Below are positions 2,812-59,571 of a stretch of 64,000 nucleotides of DNA, piece by piece. Each line of letters begins with the position of its first letter. Position 1 is the stretch's first letter. Both the position numbers and the translations under genes were made by a program. The DNA lies in contig JAFNIQ010000001.1 of NCBI GenBank assembly GCA_017601395.1, forward strand, positions 16,542 through 80,541, read 5' to 3'. The notes below the pieces were generated by a model that worked only from the letters and a program-made list of their open reading frames with translations, made no database searches and was not told the origin of the DNA. Origin of the DNA: Candidatus Brockarchaeota archaeon (lineage in GTDB: Archaea; Thermoproteota; EX4484-205; JAAOZP01).

Positions 2812-3819
2812 TTACGCTTTTATCCTTTTGTTGAAAACCTTTGCGAAGCCTATCTTCATAAGAGCCGGTAGCCCTATTAGATCAGTCGCTGTATAGAAGA
2901 ACCGGTAGAGAAGCGATACGGACACGCCGTGCGAGAGAGGAGTGCCGAACAACTGTAGCAATGCTGCTAAAACGCCTTCCTGCACACCTAGGCCAGCTAG
3001 GGTTAAAGGTAGGTAGGTGAAGCTTGAAACAAGCGAGTATATGAAGATGAATAAACCAGGGTTCAACTCAACGCCGACGGAGAGGGAGAGAAAGTAGAGG
3101 GCCATCGAGTCCAGGATGGATGTTGACAACATTGATAAGACAACCGGCCCCAGGGCCCTCTTTGCTTTAATACTCTCCCTCTGGAATTTTTCAATTCTCT
3201 CCAAGTAAGGGTTTAGAACTCTACTTACAATTCTGAACGAGCTTAGCCTTAACGCGAGCTTCCTAGGCTTATCGGACCAGAGGAGTGCTGCGAAGCATAA
3301 GGCACTGGTTGCCAGAATAACGGCACTTAAAACAACAATCAACCTGACTCCTGAAATTGATTCAATAGGGCCTATTAAATATGCTACTGAAACTATTGTC
3401 AGTAAAGCCCTTATGAGGAAGTCAATCATTCCAGATAGGACTGTCGCCACCAAGCATGCTTCAAAAGGTGTTTCGCCGAGCGCCTCCATTACGAATGGGG
3501 TTATGAAGTATCCTGCACGTCCAGGTGTAAGGTCACTCGCCAACTGGCCTGCAAAATTTGCTTGGATACAGCTTGACAGACTTGCTTTGTATTTTAGTGA
3601 TGAAAGGATGAAGAAGAAGGATAACGCGATCATCGTTGAAGCCGCTATTATCAGGGAAGAGCCGATTATGACGTATTTGGTATCGGCTTTAAGCAGGGCT
3701 TTAAAAGTCTCTTCAAAATTTGCCTGCTGAAGCAGGATTATCAGGATGAGTAGGCCTAGTGCTAACTGGCAGATTACTAAAACCCCCTTCTTGGCGCCTT
3801 CCTCATATCTCATGCTCAT
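2812..3819 (-). CDS. Flippase-like polytopic membrane protein (UPF0104 / lysyl-phosphatidylglycerol-synthase TM-region family)
   Basis: About 8 TM helices. The LTLAGLGVQEGVLAALLQLFG segment is typical of the UPF0104 family. Confidence 0.5.
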   Translation of the reverse strand: MSMRYEEGAKKGVLVICQLALGLLILIILLQQANFEETFKALLKADTKYVIIGSSLIIAASTMIALSFFFILSSLKYKASLSSCIQANFAGQLASDLTPGRAGYFITPFVMEALGETPFEACLVATVLSGMIDFLIRALLTIVSVAYLIGPIESISGVRLIVVLSAVILATSALCFAALLWSDKPRKLALRLSSFRIVSRVLNPYLERIEKFQRESIKAKRALGPVVLSMLSTSILDSMALYFLSLSVGVELNPGLFIFIYSLVSSFTYLPLTLAGLGVQEGVLAALLQLFGTPLSHGVSVSLLYRFFYTATDLIGLPALMKIGFAKVFNKRIKA

Positions 3820-3975
3820 GTCACCTGGAGGATGCGAGGATTATTAATGGTTGCTGGCTGACACTGGGCAAGATCACTGCTGCGTGTATCGAGTTAAGAG
3901 TCTTAATCACTCCAGACACCGGTTTTCCCTGTTCGCTCAACTGCCTCCAGTAAAGGTTCCCGTTATAGTTTAGAT

Positions 3976-4767
3976 TCAACTCTGCTGGGAAAGATCTTTC
4001 TCAGCTAAGCTGTTCAATATTATCTTCCTCTCGGTCTCAAGCTCATCCAGCATTTTTCGAAGCCTCGCGCTCAGCCTATCATATGCTTCTCCAGATATTA
4101 TGTTATCCTTCTTCTCATCCTCCAAAACAATTAGAAAGGCCCTGATTCTCGTCATCTCCTCTTCTACAACGTTTAGACTGGTTGACAGGTCTGGTGCTGT
4201 TGGCTCGGATACTTGAGAAGGCTCAGCCGAAGAAATTTGAGCCTCCTCTTTTGTGCCTGATAATGGTTTAAAGAGATCTATAGGTGGGCCGGATGTTTCC
4301 ACAACCTCCTCAACAGGCGGCTGGGTTACTGCTGAAACAACCTTTCTCCTAGCGTTAGGCCTAAGCTTGCCTATTATGATTGCAGCCGCGGAGGCTGCCC
4401 AGACGACGAAATAACCTGCTCCGTAGCTTGGAACGTTAAAGCCCAATACAGGGTTGAAGACGGTTACTGTGGTTACGAGTACCATTCCAAGAATACCTAT
4501 GACACCGGAGCGCAATGGATAGAGCCCTAGGGCTCCGGCAGCAGTCAGGATTATGAATGATGCTAGAATTATGATCTCATAGATTAAAAGGTTCATGGGC
4601 TGTTGTATGCCGCTTGCAACGTTTTCAATAAATTGTACCACCATGCTGAATAAGGTTGCTTGCCCAGGCTGGCCGGAGGGAAGTAGAAAGGAGCCGAAAG
4701 GCAGTAGGAATGTTGCTAGAATCATCACCAAGCCCAGTGTTATCCCGGCAATCCTGTCCATATCCAT
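3976..4767 (-). CDS. Hypothetical membrane protein (N-terminal TM helices plus an acidic, coiled-coil C-terminal tail)
   Basis: ORF with 4-5 hydrophobic helices followed by a Pro/Glu/Ser-rich linker and a heptad-like segment (…RLSARLRKMLDELETERKIILNSL…). Confidence 0.5.
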   Translation of the reverse strand: MDMDRIAGITLGLVMILATFLLPFGSFLLPSGQPGQATLFSMVVQFIENVASGIQQPMNLLIYEIIILASFIILTAAGALGLYPLRSGVIGILGMVLVTTVTVFNPVLGFNVPSYGAGYFVVWAASAAAIIIGKLRPNARRKVVSAVTQPPVEEVVETSGPPIDLFKPLSGTKEEAQISSAEPSQVSEPTAPDLSTSLNVVEEEMTRIRAFLIVLEDEKKDNIISGEAYDRLSARLRKMLDELETERKIILNSLAEKDLSQQS

Positions 4768-12545: not shown

Positions 12546-13906
12546 TGGAGGGTTTAGCGGAGCAACTTGAGGAAATCGTAGGCAGGGAGGCGGTGGTAAG
12601 CGGTAAAGACAAGATTGAGAGCTACTTGTCCGATGAAACGTGCTTTCCGGTGAGACCGTCTGCCGTATCAGACTGCATACTGGTTAAGCCTGCTAACAGC
12701 ACCGAGGTTTCAAGGATCCTTAGGCTGGCTAACGAAAAAAGGATTCCAGTATACCCTAGGGGAGGAGGGACAGGCCTTGTGGGAGGGGCTGTGCCGACTA
12801 GAAGCGGGATAATCGTTTCCCTGGAGAGGATGAATCGGATTGAAGTGGACGGAGAAAACCTGATGGCTGTCGCAGAAGCCGGGGCAACGCTGGGGGAGCT
12901 CCTGAAGGCTGCTGAGGAAGCAGGCCTCTCTTTCCCGCCGCATCCCGGGGACGAGGGTGCTCAGATAGGCGGCCTCGTAGCCTGCAACGCTGGCGGGGCT
13001 AGGGCTGTTAAGCATGGTGTTATGAGGAGCTTCGTAAAGGGCTTGGAGGTTGTACTGCCCACTGGGGAAATCGTAACTTTCGGCGGTAGGCTTCTGAAAG
13101 ACAACATGGGCTACAGCTTGATGCACTTGATCATAGGAAGCGAGGGCACACTTGGAATTATAACTAGGGTTGTTTTAAGGCTTAACCCTAAAGCGCCATA
13201 CTCCTTCACCCTGCTGCTTCCTTTCAACTCGAGGCATGACGCGCTTAATACTGTCCCGAGAATACTGCGCTCTGGGGTGACTCCCCTTGCTCTAGAGTAT
13301 GTCGAGAAGGAGTTGATGGAGCTGTCTGCTGAACACTTGGGCGAGAAATGGGTTTTCGAGGGAAAAGTCTTTCTCATAGCAATACTGGCGGGGGAGGAGA
13401 ACGTTGTCTACTCTGAGGCTGAAAAGCTTTCCCAGCTATGCGTTGAGAACAACGGGCTTGAGCCTTCAGTTGCAGAGAGAAGGGACGAGCAGGAATCCAT
13501 TTTGAGAATAAGAAGCAATATTTACACTGCTCTTAAACGCGACTCCATGGATATTCTTGACACGACGGTTCCACCATCTGCGATTGGAAAGCTGGCGGAC
13601 GCTATCGACACTATTGCCGAGAAATATGGCGCGCACATTCCTGTTTACGGTCATGCTGCAGATGGAAATGTTCACTCTCACATAATGAAGAAGGATGCTG
13701 AGAAATACGAGTTGATTAAGAGAGAAATATATGAGACTACGATAGGCCTTGGAGGAACCATCAGCGGTGAACACGGTGTTGGGAAAATCCGGGTGAAGGA
13801 GCTTTACCGGTTCACGCATCCGAAGAAAATCGAGCTTATGAAGGGGGTTAAAAGGCTTTTCGACCCGAATAATATTCTAAATCCTTCCACGGTGCTAGAG
13901 GTTTAG
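12545..13906 (+). CDS. FAD-binding oxidase (GlcD / D-lactate dehydrogenase-like, FAD_binding_4 plus FAD-oxidase C-terminal domain)
   Basis: RIPVYPRGGGTGLVGGAVP FAD-binding motif. C-terminal HAADGNVH…GGTISGEHGVG block. The ATG at 12545 overlaps the etfA TGA (TGATG). The ORF track begins 3 nt earlier at a TTG. Confidence 0.8.
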   Translation: MEGLAEQLEEIVGREAVVSGKDKIESYLSDETCFPVRPSAVSDCILVKPANSTEVSRILRLANEKRIPVYPRGGGTGLVGGAVPTRSGIIVSLERMNRIEVDGENLMAVAEAGATLGELLKAAEEAGLSFPPHPGDEGAQIGGLVACNAGGARAVKHGVMRSFVKGLEVVLPTGEIVTFGGRLLKDNMGYSLMHLIIGSEGTLGIITRVVLRLNPKAPYSFTLLLPFNSRHDALNTVPRILRSGVTPLALEYVEKELMELSAEHLGEKWVFEGKVFLIAILAGEENVVYSEAEKLSQLCVENNGLEPSVAERRDEQESILRIRSNIYTALKRDSMDILDTTVPPSAIGKLADAIDTIAEKYGAHIPVYGHAADGNVHSHIMKKDAEKYELIKREIYETTIGLGGTISGEHGVGKIRVKELYRFTHPKKIELMKGVKRLFDPNNILNPSTVLEV

Positions 13907-14051
13907 GAATTAACGGGTGAAAAACAGTAAACATAAGAGTTAAACCTTCCGTGAAGGATGTGGTATCCCTATAAGATGCAAGTCTTTATATACTGCCGGT
14001 TTGTCAGAGAAGGATTTGAAATGATAAAAACTGTTTGGTGCGTCACATTCT

Positions 14052-14309
14052 ATGTTTCCGAAACTTGAAGAGTGTAAACATGTTGCTTCAAAATCGCCGT
14101 CAGTGGAGTTTCTTGTTGAAAACGTGGAAAGGTTTTATGAGGAGTTAAAAGGTAAGGGTGTAAAGTTTATTAGGGAGTTGCATGAGGAGCCGTGGGGAGG
14201 GAAGCAAGCGACTTTTACAGACCCTGATGGAAACATTTTAGAGATAGTGCAGATCGATTGGGAGAAATACTTTAACGTATCTGCCCAAGGAGCGAAAAAG
14301 AGGGCATAA
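14052..14309 (+). CDS. VOC-family (glyoxalase/bleomycin-resistance-like) domain protein, single C-terminal module only; probably truncated or frameshifted
   Basis: The 85-aa ORF ends …WGGKQATFTDPDGNILEIVQ, typical of VOC C-terminal strands. A 16-codon ORF in another frame (14021-14068, MIKTVWCVTFYVSET*) resembles a VOC N-terminal strand. Confidence 0.45.
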   Translation: MFPKLEECKHVASKSPSVEFLVENVERFYEELKGKGVKFIRELHEEPWGGKQATFTDPDGNILEIVQIDWEKYFNVSAQGAKKRA

Positions 14310-14399
14310 GTATTAGCGTGTGCTACTATGAAGGCATGTAAAACCTCTCAGGGCCTTCCATAATGGATCTGTAACGCTACCCGCCCTAAAACAATACCG

Positions 14400-15539
14400 C
14401 TACGCCTCGAACAAGATTCCTCCTATGAGGGTCATTCGAACCCTGAAGTCTTCACCTATTACAACCATGTCAGCATCCTTCCCCTCTTCTATGCTTCCTT
14501 TACACTCTTCAACACCGAGCAATCTAGCCGGGTTATACGAGGCCACTTTGGCTACTGAGCTTAAAGGAACACCTGTAAACTTGGCGAAGCGTCTAGCCAG
14601 CTCGCTCATGCCTGCTGATGTTCCGATCAAAGTGCCGTCCACGTATCTCGCCGTCCCGTTTGAAGAGATGAATTCAATGCCATTGTAAACATACTTGCCG
14701 TCAGGTAAACCCGTTGACCTCACCCCGTCTGTTATCAATACGATTCGATCTTCACCTAAAATCCTCGTTGCGAATCTTACCATGGATGGGTGAATGTGAA
14801 CACCGTCGGATATTATCTGCACGGTCACATCCTTAGACTCGAATATGGCTATCGCCGGTCCTGGAGCCCTATGGTGAATAGGCGGCATAGTGTTGAAGAA
14901 ATGAGTAACATGCTTAACGCCAATTCTTATGGCTTTCAGGGTCTGCTCATAGTCTGCTGAAGAATGGCCGAAGGATACTATCACCCTGTTTTCAAGCAGA
15001 AGGCTTATAACCTGCTCCGAGCCCTCAAGCTCCGGAGCCAGAGTCATCATCTTCAGCCAGCCCTTACACTTATCCATTATCTCAGACAAGACTTTAACCG
15101 AAGGCTCGCAGACCGAGGATTCTTGGATCATTCCTCTTTTCTCCCTGGAGATGAACGGGCCTTCCAAATGGAATCCTAGAAACCTAGCTCCGTTTAAGCC
15201 CTTCGAGAACCCGTTCAACGCAGCCTCTAAATGCTTGTTTTCAAAACCCGGCTTATAGACGGTGGTTGCAAGAAAACCTGTGACTCCAAACTTGACGCAT
15301 GTTTCAGATATAGTGCTAACTGCTTCCTCATCCTCGTCGAGAATGTCAGCTCCTCCTGCACCCTGTATGTGAACATCTATAAAGCCTGGGAACAAAAAGT
15401 CACCTTCCAGATCAATACTCTCGCCCTCCATGTAGCCGTAGAGTGGTTTACCGATCTTCCTTATCCTCCCACGGTCGATTAGAACGTCTCCAAACGTTTC
15501 CCCCCAAGGGTTAACTATCCTCGCGTTTTTAATCAGCAT
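14400..15539 (-). CDS. nagA: N-acetylglucosamine-6-phosphate deacetylase (amidohydrolase superfamily)
   Basis: GFIDVHIQGAGGAD metal-binding motif plus downstream conserved His/Asp positions. Length 379 aa. Confidence 0.8.
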   Translation of the reverse strand: MLIKNARIVNPWGETFGDVLIDRGRIRKIGKPLYGYMEGESIDLEGDFLFPGFIDVHIQGAGGADILDEDEEAVSTISETCVKFGVTGFLATTVYKPGFENKHLEAALNGFSKGLNGARFLGFHLEGPFISREKRGMIQESSVCEPSVKVLSEIMDKCKGWLKMMTLAPELEGSEQVISLLLENRVIVSFGHSSADYEQTLKAIRIGVKHVTHFFNTMPPIHHRAPGPAIAIFESKDVTVQIISDGVHIHPSMVRFATRILGEDRIVLITDGVRSTGLPDGKYVYNGIEFISSNGTARYVDGTLIGTSAGMSELARRFAKFTGVPLSSVAKVASYNPARLLGVEECKGSIEEGKDADMVVIGEDFRVRMTLIGGILFEA

Positions 15540-15811
15540 TCAACACTGGTTTAAGCCCATTGAGCTATTAAATCTTCCTCCTTTGGAAACAACAGGTCTC
15601 TAAAAACCGAACAGACTTTTTGAAATCGAGCACTTCCACCTCAATCTCCTGCCTCGTGTTTTTAAACCTCATCCAGTAATTGTAACCGCCTTGAAGCTCA
15701 AGATTCCCAACTGTTTTCAACCTGTTTTCCAAAAGCCTTCCGTAGGGTTTAAGCCCCATTTTTCATCCTCACAAACATGTATTTTTCATCGTCAATGTTC
15801 TTATGATTATT

Positions 15812-15827
15812 AAAAAAATTTATATTT
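15812..15827 (+). promoter_or_regulatory. Putative archaeal BRE/TATA element (aaaaaaatttatattt) about 27-30 nt upstream of the small ORF start at 15854
   Basis: Purine-rich run followed by TTTATATT. The spacing to the ATG is consistent with a leaderless or very short-leader transcript. Confidence 0.35.
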
Positions 15828-15853
15828 GAGCTCAAACATAAAATAAATCCGAA

Positions 15854-16009
15854 ATGAAATTCGTACCTCTCCAAAAAGGAAGTACACCAGAGCCTGGTAC
15901 AAGGCCGCTCACATGTTGTGGTAGTAATTTCCATTTTGGAACGTATTGCACGCCAGTAAAGGGGCCGACCCAGATTATCAGCGATATTAAGGCGCTTAGG
16001 GAAGACTAA
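15854..16009 (+). CDS. Unannotated 51-aa small ORF, candidate RiPP precursor peptide (MKFVPLQKGSTPEPGTRPLTCCGSNFHFGTYCTPVKGPTQIISDIKALRED)
   Basis: ATG at 15854. The TAA at 16007-16009 overlaps the ATG (16009-16011) of the radical SAM/SPASM gene as TAATG. Three Cys sit in a Gly/Thr/Ser-rich stretch. A TATA-like box lies upstream. The ORF is below the length cutoff of the ORF track. Confidence 0.4.
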   Translation: MKFVPLQKGSTPEPGTRPLTCCGSNFHFGTYCTPVKGPTQIISDIKALRED

Positions 16010-17340
16010 TGAAAGTGAAAGCTTCTAGGTTTAATTTTTTTATACCTTTCTCAGATGGTTATTTAATATACAACACGTTTAATGGTGCACTGGCTTTTAT
16101 TGATGCGGAACTTAAGAACTTAGAGGCCAGCGACTTTCAAAAATTGCCTCCCAATCTTTTAAAAAGTCTCTTAGATCAGGGATTCTTAATCGAGGAGTTC
16201 GTCGATGAATTGCTAATGTACGAGTATTATTTCAACCTAGCAAGATACTTAACAAGTTCTGTAGGCTTTCTTCTATTAACTACGTATGATTGCAACTTTA
16301 ATTGTGTTTATTGTTATGAGAGACCTGTTATTTCCAAAGTTTATATGGATCTTGATGTCGCAAGAAGAACCGCTACTCATATTACCAAATTTACTGATGG
16401 GAAAATGGCTAAACATGTTGAGATAACTTTGTATGGTGGTGAACCCTTGCTGAATCTCAACATAGCTCAGGTAGTGTTAGATGAAGTTTTGAAATGGTGT
16501 CAGAAAAATGGTGTATCGTTGGATATCAATCTCGTAACAAATGGCTCACTTATAACTCCTGAAGTTGTTAATAGTCTTAAAGCATACAATCTTAACTCCG
16601 TTCAAGTGACGATGGATGGTCCAAAGGAAATTCACGATAAAAGAAGACCCTTTCGAAACGGCATGGGTTCTTTTGATGTAATAATGTCAAATGTTCTTAA
16701 TTGTATAGATAGTCTGCCCATAACTATAAGGGTCAATGTTGACAAGGGAAACGTCTCTTATTTCCCTGCTTTTTTGGATTTACTAGACGATTTGGGTCTA
16801 AAAAATAAAGCGGGATTATGGATTGCAATGCTTCATGGATTAGATGACTATTGTAAAACTATGAAATTTAATGATAAAGAAGCAAACGAAATACGTTACA
16901 ATATGTGGAGGCTTGCTCTCAAAAGAGGCTTCAAATTCGGATGGTATCCCTCAAGATTCCATTTATGCGATGCGATGAGGGACAACGCTCAGATAATCGA
17001 TCCTAAGGGCAATATATATAAATGTTGGAGTTTTGTAGGACTTGAAGAGTGTACTGTGGGTAAAATAGGAGAAGGAACTTACAAGCCTTATTTTTATGAA
17101 TTGTTAACTAGGAATCCTATAAGAGACGCAAAATGCAGCAGATGTAATGTACTGCCATACTGTAATGGGGGGTGCCTATATGAAGCTTACTGCCATACTG
17201 GGAATAGATCTAATTTTGTATGCGGTGTTCTTCAGGGAAAGGAAGCGTTAGAGAGCATGCTTACTCTACATGTTATTAGTATGTACAAGGAAAAACTTGT
17301 AAAGAGTGAAGTAAGCGTAGGCAATGAAATCTATGATTAA
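16009..17340 (+). CDS. Radical SAM enzyme with C-terminal SPASM domain (peptide-modifying maturase family; anSME-like)
   Basis: CNFNCVYCYERP (CxxxCxxC) near residue 95. C-terminal …YKCWSF…ECTVGK…CSRCNVLPYCNGGCLYEAY auxiliary-cluster (SPASM) cysteines. Confidence 0.85.
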   Translation: MKVKASRFNFFIPFSDGYLIYNTFNGALAFIDAELKNLEASDFQKLPPNLLKSLLDQGFLIEEFVDELLMYEYYFNLARYLTSSVGFLLLTTYDCNFNCVYCYERPVISKVYMDLDVARRTATHITKFTDGKMAKHVEITLYGGEPLLNLNIAQVVLDEVLKWCQKNGVSLDINLVTNGSLITPEVVNSLKAYNLNSVQVTMDGPKEIHDKRRPFRNGMGSFDVIMSNVLNCIDSLPITIRVNVDKGNVSYFPAFLDLLDDLGLKNKAGLWIAMLHGLDDYCKTMKFNDKEANEIRYNMWRLALKRGFKFGWYPSRFHLCDAMRDNAQIIDPKGNIYKCWSFVGLEECTVGKIGEGTYKPYFYELLTRNPIRDAKCSRCNVLPYCNGGCLYEAYCHTGNRSNFVCGVLQGKEALESMLTLHVISMYKEKLVKSEVSVGNEIYD

Positions 17341-18412
17341 TGCCATTGTTACAGAAGAGCTTACAAGAATTTTCAAAACCTATGTCCTAAAGGGTTACTA
17401 TGAAAGCGGTTGGGAACATGGAGGGGTTTTTCTTTACAATATATGGAAAAGACTTAGAGCTGAGAAGACAATGGTTCAAGCTCTAAAGGGAATTAACCTC
17501 AGAGTTAGAGAGGGAGAGTTCGTTTTCCTCGTAGGTCCGAACGGCTCCGGTAAGACTACGTTGATAAGGATATTAGCAACTTTTCTCCTACCTACCAGCG
17601 GAAAGGCCTTCGTAGCGGGATATGATGTTACGCATCAGAAAAGAGAAGTCTTGAAAAACATTAGTTACATACCCTCTCTTCTCGCAGGGGCTGCTTGGGC
17701 CCATGTAGGGCTTACAGTGGGAGAAAACCTAAAAATAATGGCAAGGCTCTTCGGCTACTCGGAGAAAACATTAGACGAAGCCTTACGGACGTTGGAAATA
17801 GAGGATCTTAAGAATAGAGTCTTCGGATCCCTTTCCACGGGCCAGCAAGCCCGGGTCGTTCTAGCTTTAGGCATGATCAAGAATGCTCCAATCTTCCTTC
17901 TAGATGAGCCAACGTTAGGTCTAAGCCCTGAAGCCGTGCGGATAGTCCTAGATTATTTAAAGTATCTAAATGAAAAGATGAAGGTTACAATTCTTTACGC
18001 CACTCATCACCTTATGGAGGCTCAGAAAATGGCTGATCGAGTGGTCTTCCTGAAAGACGGTACCATATTGGTCGATGGAGATCCAAAAAGCATAATTAGG
18101 AGCGTGGGAATTACAGAAACAATAATATTGGAGATTCATCATGCATACTTCGATATTGGCAAAGTCCTACATGAAATTGAGGACCGCTGTATATTTACCA
18201 ATGCCGAGTTATTGGAATCTGAAACGGGTGAATACGTCGTCAAGCTCGGTGTAAAGGATAGTGGGGAGGTTCTCCCCGAGATAATCCACAAGCTAGTGTC
18301 GAGAGGTTCAAGAATTAAGAATGTGAAAGTGTTGGAACCCTCTTTAGAAGATGCGTTTATGTATTATGCGAGGAGGGGTCCTGGGAGTGCGGAAATACAA
18401 GGAAATAGTTAG
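17324..18412 (+). CDS. ABC transporter ATP-binding protein
   Basis: Walker A GPNGSGKTT, signature LSTGQQARV, Walker B IFLLDEPT. The start overlaps the rSAM gene by 17 nt. Confidence 0.85.
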   Translation: MKSMINAIVTEELTRIFKTYVLKGYYESGWEHGGVFLYNIWKRLRAEKTMVQALKGINLRVREGEFVFLVGPNGSGKTTLIRILATFLLPTSGKAFVAGYDVTHQKREVLKNISYIPSLLAGAAWAHVGLTVGENLKIMARLFGYSEKTLDEALRTLEIEDLKNRVFGSLSTGQQARVVLALGMIKNAPIFLLDEPTLGLSPEAVRIVLDYLKYLNEKMKVTILYATHHLMEAQKMADRVVFLKDGTILVDGDPKSIIRSVGITETIILEIHHAYFDIGKVLHEIEDRCIFTNAELLESETGEYVVKLGVKDSGEVLPEIIHKLVSRGSRIKNVKVLEPSLEDAFMYYARRGPGSAEIQGNS

Positions 18413-19241
18413 GGTCAATCTCCGACATGTTCTCAGCTTCTACAAGGAGGAGGTGAGTGTAACTACTGCTTGGTGGGCTTGGAACATACCGTTTCAGCTT
18501 GCCAGTATCCTAATATCCTTACTCATCTATTACTATTATGCATTAGCGTTTGGAGGCTATAGCCCTCTTTTTGGAGAAAACTTCATGACATTCATAATAG
18601 TGGGGCTCATGATGAACACTTATCTAGATATTTCTATGGATGCTTATTACTCCGCGATCAGCGCGCTCTATATGGGCAAAGAGGGTATAGGTGGACTAGC
18701 TATAAGTAGAATGGACTACCTTAGTCTGGCAGGAATTTCGCCTTATGTATTTATCTTTGCGAGGATCAGCTATTATTACATAACGCAGACTATCGTATTC
18801 CTTTTGTATTTTCTGGCTGGACAGTTTTTCGGCGTTAGTATCCCTTTTTTAGAGAATCTCGGTTTGGTCGTGATAGCCATGATGCTTGGTATAATTGCTT
18901 GCAGTGGCATAGGGCTGATATCGGCTAGCATGTATTGGCTTGCTGGTAGCTATAGGGGTGTTGAACCAATTAGATGGACTATAAGGATGCTTGTACCGCT
19001 TCTCTCCGGGATATTTGTACCTCTTCATGTTTTACCAGAATCGATCAGAGCAATAAGCATATTGCTTCCTCAGACTCATACATTACAAGCAGTCAGAGCA
19101 TCTCTTGCAGGAGCTACCTTATCTCAGATACTTCTGAACTTAGAAGCACTGATAATATTCTCGGTAGTACTCGTACCGGTCGGATTATTACTGCTTAAAT
19201 ACTCACTTAATCTGGAGAGAAAAAGAGGCACGATCTACTAA
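18351..19241 (+). CDS. ABC-2 type transporter permease (6 TM). The true start is probably an internal Met or GTG a few codons downstream.
   Basis: Six hydrophobic helices and an ABC-2-like length. It overlaps the preceding ATPase gene. Confidence 0.7.
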   Translation: MRLCIMRGGVLGVRKYKEIVRVNLRHVLSFYKEEVSVTTAWWAWNIPFQLASILISLLIYYYYALAFGGYSPLFGENFMTFIIVGLMMNTYLDISMDAYYSAISALYMGKEGIGGLAISRMDYLSLAGISPYVFIFARISYYYITQTIVFLLYFLAGQFFGVSIPFLENLGLVVIAMMLGIIACSGIGLISASMYWLAGSYRGVEPIRWTIRMLVPLLSGIFVPLHVLPESIRAISILLPQTHTLQAVRASLAGATLSQILLNLEALIIFSVVLVPVGLLLLKYSLNLERKRGTIY

Positions 19242-19366: not shown

Positions 19367-20728
19367 TCATACTTGTGAGACAAGTTTTCTTGCTCTTTCA
19401 GCAAGTTCCGCGCGTTTCCACATTATATCCTTCGGCAGGGTTAATGAGGCAGCGGTGAGAACCACGGCGCATATCGACCAGGTTATGGTTATTATCACCA
19501 CCATTCCCCATTCCAATCCTATGATGTCTGCCAAGTAGCCAGTAATAAGCGGGGCAAAAGCGGAGCCTGCGTTTTCAACGAATACCTGTACTGATTGAAT
19601 GGTGCTCCTGACCTCGGGAAGAGCTATGTCTTGAAGGGAAGCTGTTACAGCAGGGCCCGCCATAGGAATGAAGAAGCCGGTAAGCGCTCCGAACGCGGCG
19701 AAGAGCTCCACGCCACCCTTCGTCAAAAGCGTCAGGTCGAAAAAGACCAGGCCCACGGCCACCGATATCCCGGCGAAAATCGCCCTCCCTTTCAAAGTCT
19801 TCCTGAACGCCCAGTCGCTCGTTATTCCTGCAACAACGTTACCGGCAACCATCGCTGCAATCGCAACAAGCATTATGAACAGCTGTGAATCCGGGTCGAA
19901 CCCCCTCTCATAAGTCATGTAGGCAAAAAGCCAATAGGTTATTATCTGCCAAGGGAAGACTCCGAAGAAGCCCTGCGTAAAAAGGAAGATCATCGATTTT
20001 CTCCTCAGCACTTCGATCAACGACTCCTTTCTAAAAGTATCTTTCAACTTATCCTTCACAGCAAGCAGTTCCGGCTCAGTGGAACCCCTCGGCTTGTCTC
20101 TTAACGTGGCCACTATTAGAACTGCCAATAGCAAGCCGGGCACCCCAGTTATCATGAAGGCGCTGCGCCACCCTAGGGTGCTGCCCATGATGGTTCCAAT
20201 AATGGTTCCAAGTAGGGCCCCGATTGCAGCGGAAGTATTCAGTATGCCGAAAGCTGTAGACCTTTTCTCAGGTGGGAAATGGTCGCCAATGAACGAGACT
20301 ATCCCGCTAGTCGCCTCATTATCAATCCCGGTTAAGGCCCTGGTAAAGGCCAGCTCCACGAAATTCCTTGAGAAGGTTGAGAACACGGTTGTTCCCCCCC
20401 AGATAGCGCTGGCTAAAGCGGCTAGGTGGGGTCTAGCGTACTTGTCGAAAAGGTAGCCCCAGAGGGGCATGAAAATCACTGCAACTACTGCGGCGCCAGT
20501 CTGTATGGCGCCCAGCTGAGTATATGAGAGAGTAAACTCATCCTTTATCGAGGGAAGGAGCGGCGAGATTAGAAACTTATCCGAATTATGGAGCACCATG
20601 AATAGGAAGAACACGAAGACCGCGTACCAAGCTTCGCGCGATATACTGTAGGATGGAATCCTAGCCATCCTGTGCCCACCCCTACCTAAGGTCCCTCCAG
20701 CCAACCAGAGTGAAACCCAGTTCCTCAA
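19367..20728 (-). CDS. MFS transporter. The start is probably at the internal Met 60 nt downstream (about 20668).
   Basis: 12 predicted TM helices. The motif G-x-L-x-D-K-Y-A-R-P after TM2 is typical of the major facilitator superfamily. Confidence 0.75.
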   Translation of the reverse strand: MRNWVSLWLAGGTLGRGGHRMARIPSYSISREAWYAVFVFFLFMVLHNSDKFLISPLLPSIKDEFTLSYTQLGAIQTGAAVVAVIFMPLWGYLFDKYARPHLAALASAIWGGTTVFSTFSRNFVELAFTRALTGIDNEATSGIVSFIGDHFPPEKRSTAFGILNTSAAIGALLGTIIGTIMGSTLGWRSAFMITGVPGLLLAVLIVATLRDKPRGSTEPELLAVKDKLKDTFRKESLIEVLRRKSMIFLFTQGFFGVFPWQIITYWLFAYMTYERGFDPDSQLFIMLVAIAAMVAGNVVAGITSDWAFRKTLKGRAIFAGISVAVGLVFFDLTLLTKGGVELFAAFGALTGFFIPMAGPAVTASLQDIALPEVRSTIQSVQVFVENAGSAFAPLITGYLADIIGLEWGMVVIITITWSICAVVLTAASLTLPKDIMWKRAELAERARKLVSQV

Positions 20729-21557
20729 CTATTTGTCGAGCCTCCTTAGAGGTGACCAGCTGGTAATCCAGATACCTGTCTACGTGGCTCGTCACGCCAT
20801 GGCTAGGTATTATTGCCTTCATCTCCTCTTCGGGAAGGCCAAGGTGTACTATTATCTGAGTCAATGTTCCAGGCTTAATATCCTTCAAAACATCTCTAAA
20901 CCATTTTATTCTTTCCTGCAGGTCGGAGCCGAATGTAATGCCGATGAAATTATCAAGCATAGACGTACCGGATTTAAGAATCCTGCTTACAAGATCATCT
21001 GATATAGTTATGCCCATCTGCTTAGCCACTTCGAACGCGCTGTCAGTGGGTTTAATCAACATCGGGATAAGGCCGTTATCCAAGGCAACCTTCACATAGG
21101 TCTCTAAGAGATCCGGCCTGAAGAAAACAGTGCCCATGTGAGTATCAAGATGAGAGGGCTGTAGACCAAGGTCGAAAGCCCTTTTCACCTGCACCCTCAG
21201 CTCAGCCTCAACCTCCTTCCGCGAGGCTTTTGCAGCATCCTTCGCCTCCTTATGCAGGTATCCCTGCTCATCTAAGAGGGTTGGAACCTCGCTCCTTGAA
21301 CTAACCGGGCCCCACCTGTAGAGCCTCCACTCGCTCGTCAGCGTCGAATGTATCCCGTAGTCGTAACCCGGGTTCTCCTTGAAGAACTCAACCGCTTCGA
21401 GTATCCATGGGCATGGCATCATAAGGCTGCAGCTTGAAACCACGCCGTTTTGAAACCCTAGGAAGGTTGCCTTATTCTCTGCGTGACACATGCCGACATC
21501 GTCTGCATGGATAATCAGAAGCTTGTCATTCCGGTCGAAGCCGCCAGTCAACGGCAT
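20682..21557 (-). CDS. YdjC/ChbG-family carbohydrate deacetylase
   Basis: The N-terminal LLIIHADDVGMCHAENKA motif, with its metal-binding Asp and His, is characteristic of YdjC-like deacetylases. Confidence 0.75.
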   Translation of the reverse strand: MPLTGGFDRNDKLLIIHADDVGMCHAENKATFLGFQNGVVSSCSLMMPCPWILEAVEFFKENPGYDYGIHSTLTSEWRLYRWGPVSSRSEVPTLLDEQGYLHKEAKDAAKASRKEVEAELRVQVKRAFDLGLQPSHLDTHMGTVFFRPDLLETYVKVALDNGLIPMLIKPTDSAFEVAKQMGITISDDLVSRILKSGTSMLDNFIGITFGSDLQERIKWFRDVLKDIKPGTLTQIIVHLGLPEEEMKAIIPSHGVTSHVDRYLDYQLVTSKEARQIVEELGFTLVGWRDLR

Positions 21558-59465: not shown

Positions 59466-59571
59466 GTCGCTGTCGATATCGATAACGATATATAAACTTT
59501 ACTGTTTTTTCCAAATTTCTTACGAGTAGGCTCACGCTAAAGATATAAACCCTTAAAAACAAATAGTCGCC

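Follow-up and report, generated by a model that had tools for sequence, protein, structure and literature searches.

A short cysteine-rich open reading frame ahead of an archaeal radical SAM/SPASM gene as the probable precursor of an exported modified peptide

Is the 51-codon open reading frame (ORF) that directly precedes a radical S-adenosylmethionine (SAM)/SPASM gene in a Candidatus Brockarchaeota archaeon a gene at all, and if it is, could its product be the substrate of the enzyme encoded beside it? We addressed this question in a 64,000-nucleotide stretch of contig JAFNIQ010000001.1 (positions 16,542 to 80,541 of the forward strand), which is called the window below and in which all coordinates are given. 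The original prediction had paired a cysteine-rich, precursor-type peptide with the radical SAM/SPASM maturase, and this pairing was borne out, since a shared leader and core are found in every orthologous locus. In all likelihood the ORF is the precursor gene of a four-gene, co-directional operon for a ribosomally synthesized peptide that is modified after translation (RiPP), comprising the peptide, the radical SAM/SPASM maturase, an ATP-binding cassette (ABC) ATPase and an ABC-2 permease, whose modified product would be exported. The two elements on which the argument turns are:

15854..16009, + strand: putative precursor peptide gene, 51 amino acids, MKFVPLQKGSTPEPGTRPLTCCGSNFHFGTYCTPVKGPTQIISDIKALRED, with homologous ORFs upstream of all orthologous maturases
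16009..17340, + strand: radical SAM/SPASM peptide maturase, 443 amino acids, Pfam Radical_SAM and Fer4_12

The reading frame and its counterparts

The coordinates and sequence of the ORF had been given exactly, and its start is unambiguous, the ATG being the only one past the upstream in-frame stop in a stop-to-stop frame that runs from 15842. By itself, however, a frame of 51 codons is no more than chance would supply, because 76 ORFs of at least 30 amino acids overlap the 9 kb between 12000 and 21000. Its length is unremarkable and the case therefore depends on comparative evidence. The ORF is indeed unannotated: an independent assembly of the same organism (L176) carries no gene call at this position, and a word-indexed search of a collection of 5.8 billion proteins gave no match to the peptide. 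An exhaustive phmmer search of 1.84 billion representatives returned only a marginal match to a 2,814-amino-acid repeat protein, which we judged spurious, and scans of ten family peptides against Pfam and NCBIfam at E <= 10 placed them in no family. Nor did a literature search find the core or leader motif strings of these peptides in any paper. As direct searches with the peptide were fruitless, we found its homologues through the genomic neighbourhoods of the enzyme.

The loci came from the contigs of the enzyme orthologues P0002-P0011 together with two genome matches, an Archaeoglobales metagenome-assembled genome (MAG; L084) and a Thermoprotei MAG (L085). The orthologue group is compact, at 41-51% identity, and the next tier stands clearly apart at 35% or below; a Candidatus Brockarchaeota MAG has an identical enzyme sequence on record. 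In each of the 13 distinct orthologous loci, which represent Brockarchaeota, Archaeoglobales and Thermoprotei MAGs and unassigned metagenome contigs and thus at least three archaeal lineages, a sense-strand ORF of 31-51 amino acids precedes the enzyme gene. Gene finders called this ORF in two of them and missed it in the other 11. Most counts given below refer to 12 aligned peptides, and L177 is the thirteenth locus. The aligned peptides fall into two subgroups, the first of which shares the core of the window peptide while the members of the second end in -TW:

Window-core subgroup, window: MKFVPLQKGSTPEPGTRPLTCCGSNFHFGTYCTPVKGPTQIISDIKALRED
Window-core subgroup, L001: MDIVVLEEGKTLDELRVEPCECCNSNFHCGTYCSPVKKPS
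Window-core subgroup, L003: MELIILEEGEEYETIASAADCPAKGCCTNNFHCETFIP
Window-core subgroup, L164: MEVIVLRKKVIHPLGRCCIINCGTYCNPVGD
Window-core subgroup, L169: MELIMLRKGTPYKEILITPSRCCIVNCGTYCSPVS
Window-core subgroup, L173: MEAIILRHKTISPLGRCCIINCGTYCSPVSSPGDNN
Window-core subgroup, L175: MKIIPLKDSIAPTMGCCSPNCGVYCSPVKDILEQRPYSG
Second subgroup, L084: (M)EIIPLREGGILLGDDCYCACYKTICNFASPPPPPPSTW
Second subgroup, L085: (M)EIIPLREGSCTFDDCGVCDCFQSICNYCAPPKEPSTW
Second subgroup, L174: (M)EIIPLRERSYVFGLCRDCCFLTICNFKKEGPSTW
Second subgroup, L167: MRVRVLEKGAEGPAAAVSCPTLCCIIVGRRNTW
Second subgroup, L171: MLLVPLEEKQVKSILDTCSGEYCLCKGGCYQSNYTEEPATW

When a profile built from these twelve peptides was run against the 5.8 billion proteins, only two called proteins were retrieved, the peptide of L173 and P0122. 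The latter is a new copy, that of L177, and is again followed, 15 nt downstream, by genes for a radical SAM enzyme, an ABC ATPase and an ABC-2 permease. P0122 confirms the pairing of peptide and enzyme independently, from the side of the peptide.

Is it the sense frame, or another frame over the same DNA, that selection has maintained? The sense frame runs open through the peptide region in 12 of 12 loci. Its ratio of nonsynonymous to synonymous differences (pN/pS) is 0.46 (bootstrap confidence interval 0.33-0.62, with pS saturated at 0.81), which matches the 0.44 obtained by calibration on the enzyme genes of the same loci; of the remaining frames, four give 0.96-1.15, and the antisense frame with the same wobble positions gives 0.66. 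Pairwise differences within the window's subgroup number 283, 239 and 411 at codon positions 1, 2 and 3. Invariant residues show synonymous turnover (Cys TGT/TGC, Gly GGA/GGC/GGT/GGG, Thr ACG/ACA/ACC/ACT, Tyr TAT/TAC, Pro CCA/CCG, Val GTA/GTC), the invariant Leu6 is written with six codons, a conserved Ser switches between AGT and TCT, and all indels between copies are multiples of three. It counts somewhat against this comparison of frames that the codon alignments were made from sense-frame translations, which biases it to a degree; the ungapped leader and core blocks, which are independent of gap placement, carry the strongest coding signal. Conservation and substitution patterns had been proposed as a way to check the ORF, and they gave an intact sense frame in all orthologous loci and a protein-like pattern in that frame only. 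From these patterns it appears almost certain that the ORF is a real protein-coding gene under purifying selection.

The same data bear on the opposite possibility, that the frame is open by chance and the true feature is an antisense ORF or a non-coding element. Frames of this size are common here, gene finders left the ORF uncalled, and two antisense frames are also open over the peptide span in the window. One of these belongs to the 61-amino-acid antisense ORF at 15749..15934 (-), which the original prediction had named as a competitor and which does exist in the window. Its frame (-0) contains stops in 9 of the 12 loci, however, and the -1 frame in 8, and by this comparison the antisense ORF is not conserved. 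Moreover, amino-acid motifs are retained despite the turnover of synonymous codons, and Rfam gave no match in 15400-16300. As far as comparative data allow, an accidental frame is refuted, and we assign it virtually no probability.

Leader, core and tail of the peptide

The distribution of constraint along the peptide divides it into four parts:

15854..15880, + strand: putative leader recognition motif, residues 1-9, MKFVPLQKG, pN/pS 0.41
15881..15913, + strand: variable spacer, residues 10-20, pN/pS 0.86, closing with a conserved Pro
15914..15958, + strand: putative core, residues 21-35, CCGSNFHFGTYCTPV, pN/pS 0.24
15959..16006, + strand: lineage-specific C-terminal tail, residues 36-51, KGPTQIISDIKALRED, pN/pS 1.03

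The leader consensus of the family is M-E-I-I-(P/V/I)-L-(R/E)-(E/K)-G, and the conserved Pro of the spacer (P18) stands two to four residues ahead of a CC pair. As had been noted from the sequence, the cysteines of the window peptide are this pair, residues 21 and 22, and a third Cys ten residues on, at position 32. Across the 12 aligned peptides M1, L6 and the CC pair are invariant, the pair being the sole invariant feature of the core. In the window's subgroup the core follows the motif CC-x-x-N-(FH)-x-G-T-Y-C-x-P-V, with 3-4 Cys and neither Asp nor Glu. Strict core and leader regular expressions matched nothing in 160 loci of the wider enzyme family; the CC..N..GTYC motif is therefore confined to the orthologue group.

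The original prediction had left the polarity of leader and core unclear and had considered a follower-type architecture. The selection patterns settle the first point in favour of an N-terminal leader and a C-terminal core. The tail is unconstrained, and it is absent or unrelated elsewhere, other copies ending 0-5 residues past the PV and the L175 peptide bearing an unrelated 11-residue tail; a follower-type architecture is therefore not supported. The tail of the window copy is probably a neutral read-on to the TAATG sequence at its junction with the enzyme gene.

RiPP precursors typically combine a conserved leader with a core that changes fast. In the second subgroup, the enzymes are 84-91% identical and the leaders are identical at 8-9 of 9 residues, whereas identity over the remainder of the peptide is only about 50%. 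L003 and L177 have enzymes that agree at 436 of 441 positions; all three replacements between their peptides (3/3) fall in the core, and the sole change in the leader is synonymous; the comparison of core with enzyme replacements gave a Fisher p = 0.001, from small numbers. The window's own subgroup has a strongly conserved core instead of a fast-changing one.

How might the peptide gene be expressed? An A-rich element of archaeal type, with a B recognition element (BRE) and TATA-like part, had been noted ahead of it and was found as described:

15812..15827, + strand: A-rich BRE/TATA-like promoter element, aaaaaaatttatattt, the ATG following 27 nt past its final base

The TATA-like box, TTTATATT at 15819-15826, lies at -35 from the ATG, and no Shine-Dalgarno-like element is present within 20 nt ahead of the peptide ATG in the window. 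The BRE/TATA-like element, if it acts as a promoter as we infer, predicts a leaderless or near-leaderless peptide transcript. Its 12-mer AAAATTTATATT at 15815-15826 (+) has an identical copy at 21591-21580 (-), 22 nt ahead of the ATG of a YdjC-like gene (20682..21557, -), and a further exact match to the searched promoter pattern, the variant AAAGTTTATATA, occurs at 59489-59500 (-). With one mismatch permitted, the window contains 8 matches to the 12-mer against 3.4 expected, and the 12-mer looks like the BRE/TATA consensus of the organism. Scans for sigma-70 promoters and intrinsic terminators use bacterial models and are uninformative for an archaeon. Among the 12 aligned copies, nine have a ribosome-binding site (GGTG or GGAGG) 9-13 nt before the peptide start, and several of the other loci have their own GGTG-type site before the enzyme gene.

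The maturase, the exporter and the probable modification

The enzyme has the radical SAM motif C95-x3-C99-x2-C102 and the SPASM cysteines C320, C339 (preceded by G334-x4), C376-x2-C379-x5-C385-x3-C389 and C405, all of which are invariant or nearly so in alignments of 11 and 82 homologues. Seven SPASM cysteines serve two [4Fe-4S] clusters in CteB and TigE, leaving one open iron site (PMC10878394), and in thioether synthases such an open auxiliary-cluster site is the docking point of the substrate Cys, according to the CteB/PapB literature (e.g. PMC10177961). An AlphaFold2 (AF2) model of the enzyme (predicted local distance difference test score, pLDDT, 93.6; predicted template modelling score, pTM, 0.91) has three or four beta strands followed by three helices in residues 3-56, namely strands 9-14, 17-22 and 28-31 and helices 33-36, 40-45 and 48-56. 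The winged-helix topology of a RiPP recognition element (RRE) has been described for TigE residues 3-85 and for CteB (PMC10878394), and the predicted N-terminal domain of our enzyme (about residues 3-80) is RRE-like in that it matches this topology. In a profile search CteB was the best solved relative (E = 1e-35), and the profile aligned residues 5-407 of the enzyme with residues 9-439 of TigE. Foldseek ranked CteB first (template modelling score, TM, 0.73; the alignment covers the entire length, N-terminal domain included), followed by TigE, anSME, SuiB and ChlB.

The best NCBIfam neighbours of the enzyme are all SPASM-class peptide maturases, of which CefB, TIGR04463, the geopeptide maturase, Clo7bot and PapB act on Cys-rich peptides, and none reaches its cutoff; the lower-scoring SCIFF maturase is given for comparison:

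CefB: 291 bits, full-length alignment, cutoff 600
TIGR04463: 239 bits, cutoff 525
Geopeptide maturase (TIGR04280): 203 bits, cutoff 400
Clo7bot: 202 bits, cutoff 600
FlmE/OhkG: 165 bits, cutoff 500
PapB: 148 bits, cutoff 340
SCIFF maturase: 97 bits, cutoff 425

That the peptide is the substrate of this neighbouring maturase seems to us highly probable: in every case it stands beside a member of this enzyme family, and constraint falls on its leader and core but not on the spacer and tail. For thioether chemistry specifically, which we propose by analogy with the nearest relatives, the balance is only somewhat favourable. Could the peptide be a genuine substrate of some other radical reaction? 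The enzyme might form a carbon-carbon cyclophane on Phe, His or Tyr, make a cyclopropyl group, epimerise residues or carry out another radical modification, with the cysteines acting as disulfides, metal ligands or cluster-docking handles. SPASM enzymes of the same fold are chemically varied, and two that rank high by structure are TigE (cyclopropylglycine) and SuiB (a Lys-Trp C-C bond); the core has conserved aromatic residues (F/H, Y) beside its Cys, and the enzyme fails the cutoffs of all families. The nearest neighbours, however, are thioether-forming enzymes or maturases of Cys-rich peptides (CteB, CefB, PapB), while the models of the cyclophane families YhhB, GrrM and FxsB give much smaller scores of about 57-74 bits. 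The canonical cysteine of G-x4-C (GNIYKC, C339) is retained in the enzyme, the GYW motif that provides the Tyr ligand of cyclopropyl synthases is missing from it, and the only feature shared by the cores of all 12 peptides is the CC pair. We consider a different chemistry quite unlikely.

The reading as an exported modified peptide draws on the genes that follow the maturase:

17324..18412, + strand: ABC transporter ATPase, DrrA-like, Pfam ABC_tran 9e-29, NCBIfam drrA 208 bits, under cutoff
18351..19241, + strand: ABC-2 type permease, weak Pfam ABC2_membrane_3 and ABC2_membrane, alternative start 18387 called in L176

The maturase and ATPase ORFs share 17 nt (17324-17340), and those of ATPase and permease overlap by up to 62 nt (18351-18412), or by 26 nt with the start at 18387; the cassette is therefore tightly packed and operon-like. 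A homologous ATPase follows the maturase in L001, L003, L164, L167, L169 and L177, with a permease in the equivalent position in orthologous loci, and wherever a locus extends far enough, exporter genes are found in synteny behind the enzyme gene. In L171 a fused ABC_membrane+ABC_tran exporter takes the place of the separate genes. The GC content of the peptide and radical SAM genes (15800-17400) is 35-37%, as against about 45-54% in the flanks (13000-15400 and 19400-21000), and members of the orthologue group turn up in Brockarchaeota, Archaeoglobales and Thermoprotei alike. Low GC and scattered taxa together suggest that the cassette was acquired horizontally.

The original prediction had described the peptide and enzyme genes as translationally coupled by TAATG, and in the window the final A of the peptide TAA (16007-16009) is indeed the A of the enzyme's ATG. 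Coupling of this kind is not a conserved feature, the 12 other loci having spacers of 4-37 nt in place of the 1-nt overlap. Co-transcription of peptide and enzyme is conserved, and coupling by overlap is peculiar to the window locus. Might the ORF then be a translated regulatory upstream ORF (uORF), such as an attenuator through which the radical SAM gene responds to cysteine or to translation, and no substrate at all? It lies directly upstream of the enzyme gene in the same direction, it has many Cys codons, and with the overlap its translation must affect that of the enzyme in the window. Against this, leader and core form two distinct blocks whose amino-acid sequence is under selection as strong as that on the enzyme, the overlap is absent from the other loci, and among close relatives the cores diversify while the leaders stay fixed, which is not expected of a sensor uORF. 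The predicted RRE-like, peptide-binding domain of the enzyme and the dedicated exporter conserved downstream also speak against it, and we regard a regulatory uORF as highly improbable.

An equally improbable idea is that the peptide serves the enzyme or transporter as a small accessory subunit that binds a metal or cluster, and that no modified peptide is exported. The conserved CC...C(...C) could ligate a metal, and the cluster was found to encode no leader peptidase. This sits poorly with the leader/core organisation and a core that is hypervariable in one subgroup, with the differing Cys count among members and with the presence of an exporter; in addition, the homologous enzyme families all use such peptides as substrates.

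If the ORF is, as we favour, the precursor of a modified and exported peptide, transcription from the TATA-like element would yield a near-leaderless mRNA, from which both peptide and enzyme would be translated, and reinitiation at TAATG is plausible in the window. The leader (residues 1-9 plus the spacer) may bind as a strand to the RRE-like winged helix at the N-terminus of the maturase, as its fold and the analogy with CteB suggest. The radical SAM cluster would then abstract a hydrogen from a core residue, with the involvement of the two SPASM auxiliary clusters, one of which may offer an open site to a substrate Cys. In what we hold to be the least certain step, C21, C22 and C32 would be joined to acceptor carbons in N-x-x-x-G-T-Y, giving one to three thioether macrocycles. 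The ABC-2 transporter would export the product and/or protect the producer, as the conserved synteny implies.

Several points weigh against this reading. The modification chemistry is entirely what we infer from relatives; the enzyme stays under the curated cutoff of every named family, its N-terminal domain has no Pfam PqqD/RRE match, and TigE, the second-best structural match, makes cyclopropylglycine. None of the Cys-X3-Asp/Glu motifs known from characterised ranthipeptides occurs in the core. No leader peptidase or other protease is conserved across the cluster to account for removal of the leader. The copy in the window, moreover, departs from the norm: at the position ahead of G-T-Y where 6 of 7 subgroup members have a fourth Cys it has Phe (TGT to TTT), it carries an unconstrained tail of 16 residues and the TAATG overlap, and it has no Shine-Dalgarno-like element; it could be less active than its relatives.

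It had also been considered that the substrate of the maturase might be encoded elsewhere. No second ORF with the core or leader motif, and hence no other motif-bearing candidate, is present in the window. A 63-amino-acid ORF divergent from the peptide gene (15568..15759, -), which ends in ...ETCCFQRRKI, was tried as a second precursor and rejected, hhalign giving a probability of 1% against the peptide family. This ORF was called by the gene finder in L176; it has no Pfam or NCBIfam match, and its only tblastn matches are weak ones inside a bacterial TonB-receptor-like (outer-membrane-receptor-like) protein, which we took as chance. It may be a spurious call.

A few neighbouring genes deserve mention. 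In the window, an 85-amino-acid ORF at 14052..14309 (+) (region 13958-14309) matches only positions 76-121 of the 121-position Glyoxalase domain profile, its C-terminal third, and may be a truncated or frameshifted gene. A protein of 344-390 amino acids with faint helix-turn-helix (HTH) similarity is encoded directly upstream of the peptide gene in L001 (3419-4453, +) and L169 (637-1809, +), and on its other strand (603-2726, -) L001 additionally has genes for a second, small radical SAM protein and for an ABC ATPase. The former may be a regulator and the latter a second system; neither occurs in the window.

Relation to known systems

What does this locus add to what is known of archaeal RiPPs? 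Genome mining has predicted radical SAM RiPP clusters in many archaeal genomes, none of them characterised (PMC12144867; PMC13635244), and the only validated archaeal RiPPs are haloarchaeal lanthipeptides (PMC12144867). The peptides described here very probably form a previously undescribed and almost wholly unannotated archaeal precursor family within a well-known class, the radical SAM RiPPs. A probable substrate gene can now be assigned for one archaeal radical SAM family, with leader, core and presumably dispensable parts defined from selection patterns; 13 natural variants are supplied, and the system can be tested by co-expressing two small genes. That the family is nearly invisible in very large protein databases illustrates how small genes of archaeal biosynthetic clusters go unrecorded. 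The architecture itself is unsurprising, a textbook set of precursor, RRE-radical SAM/SPASM enzyme and ABC exporter.

A bolder proposal, which we put forward as doubtful, is that the peptide is the founding member of an uncharacterised RiPP family, apparently archaea-only and probably thermophilic (Brockarchaeota, Archaeoglobales, Thermoprotei). Such a family might carry an undescribed cross-link pattern or bond type on CC-x-x-N...G-T-Y-C, for example Cys-Asn, Cys-Thr or Cys-Tyr links in a compact bicyclic knot, and might have spread horizontally under diversifying selection for an antagonistic or signalling role. If this were true, the family would be among the first archaeal radical SAM RiPPs open to experiment, and its extremely short, Met1-anchored leader would possibly be useful for peptide engineering at high temperature.

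Short ORFs before homologous radical SAM/SPASM genes had been suggested as a further check, and beyond the 13 of 13 orthologous loci the same design recurs in the wider enzyme family (at most 36% identity). Most of the uncalled upstream peptides there begin at once with ME(I/V/W)(I/L) and have a CC or multi-Cys core:

MEIIRKGSDNV...GCCFPPGT...: L018 (about 2815-2910), L027, L035, L051 and L054
MKLKVLIRANEQVFEPLCITEGTGSWCCKICSPYF: L010 (about 2840-2945) and the Theionarchaea MAG L144

A further example of such a peptide is MEVIKKGSDNVSAIGPLGCCFPPGTESFRVR. Among the wider-family peptides (L004-L163), an NCBIfam peptide model matched only the CefA-like one of a Thermococcus sp. MAG (L141, WAPO01000151, about 2570-2785), at 50.9 bits against a cutoff of 30. 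The L141 enzyme (2855-4180) reaches 235 bits with CefB (cutoff 600) and a higher score, 302, with TIGR04463; for archaeal members the curated models of peptide and of enzyme therefore disagree. The shared leaders suggest that a Met1-anchored ME(I/V/W)I leader is ancestral to the clade of CefB, TIGR04463, geopeptide maturase and Clo7bot.

The cluster very probably belongs to the general class of RRE-dependent radical SAM/SPASM RiPP systems, with an adjacent precursor, a leader and core, the CxxxCxxC and SPASM cysteines and a predicted RRE all found together. How close is it to any particular member of this class? SCIFF clusters are bacterial and are not generally known to have a dedicated ABC-2 exporter. 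CteB of the CteA/CteB (SCIFF) system of Clostridium thermocellum (PDB 5wgg/5why), the best solved relative by both sequence and fold, is built on the same plan, an RRE, a radical SAM barrel and a SPASM domain in which seven Cys serve two auxiliary clusters, and CteA is likewise a short Cys-rich peptide encoded beside its enzyme. However, CteB is only 18-20% identical to the window enzyme, which falls far below the cutoff of the SCIFF maturase model, and the SCIFF peptide has six Cys, whereas the window family has 3-4 and no similarity to it. PapB, the maturase of freyrasin (PapA) among the ranthipeptides, is a radical SAM/SPASM enzyme of the same clade that also acts on Cys-containing cores. 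The defining thioether of ranthipeptides links a Cys sulfur with an acceptor residue at a carbon other than the alpha carbon. The PapA motif consists of Cys-X3-Asp units, to which the Cys-X3-Asn spacing of C21...N25 in the window peptide is formally analogous; the window core nevertheless has no Asp or Glu acceptors and no repeated CX3D units, and the enzyme scores below the PapB cutoff.

CefA/CefB (Cys-every-fifth; NF038108/NF038107) includes the top-scoring named enzyme family, though the score remains well under its cutoff. In the Thermococcus relative the CefA-type leader opens with ME(W)I from Met1, much as the present leaders do with ME(I/V)I, but ten family peptides gave no match to the CefA model at E <= 10 and their Cys spacing is irregular rather than every fifth. 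TIGR04463 and the geopeptide maturases, the second- and third-best enzyme matches, likewise stay below their cutoffs; as far as a literature search showed, both are bioinformatic definitions that have no characterised product. The metagenomic relatives nearest to the geopeptide model have upstream peptides such as MEVIKKGSDNV...GCCFPPGT, likewise built of an N-terminal leader and a CC core but with different core motifs.

The operon as a whole follows the same logic as sactipeptide operons such as that of subtilosin (alb), in which the order is precursor, radical SAM/SPASM thioether synthase and ABC transporter components, though the window cluster is archaeal and has no leader-processing proteases. 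The enzyme scores 59 bits with the RumMC sactisynthase model (cutoff 720), and as sactisynthases are polyphyletic (PMC10288494) an alpha-carbon linkage is not decided by sequence. On the evidence of enzyme models, peptide models and core patterns, the cluster resembles a sactipeptide or ranthipeptide cluster, yet it stands outside every named family.

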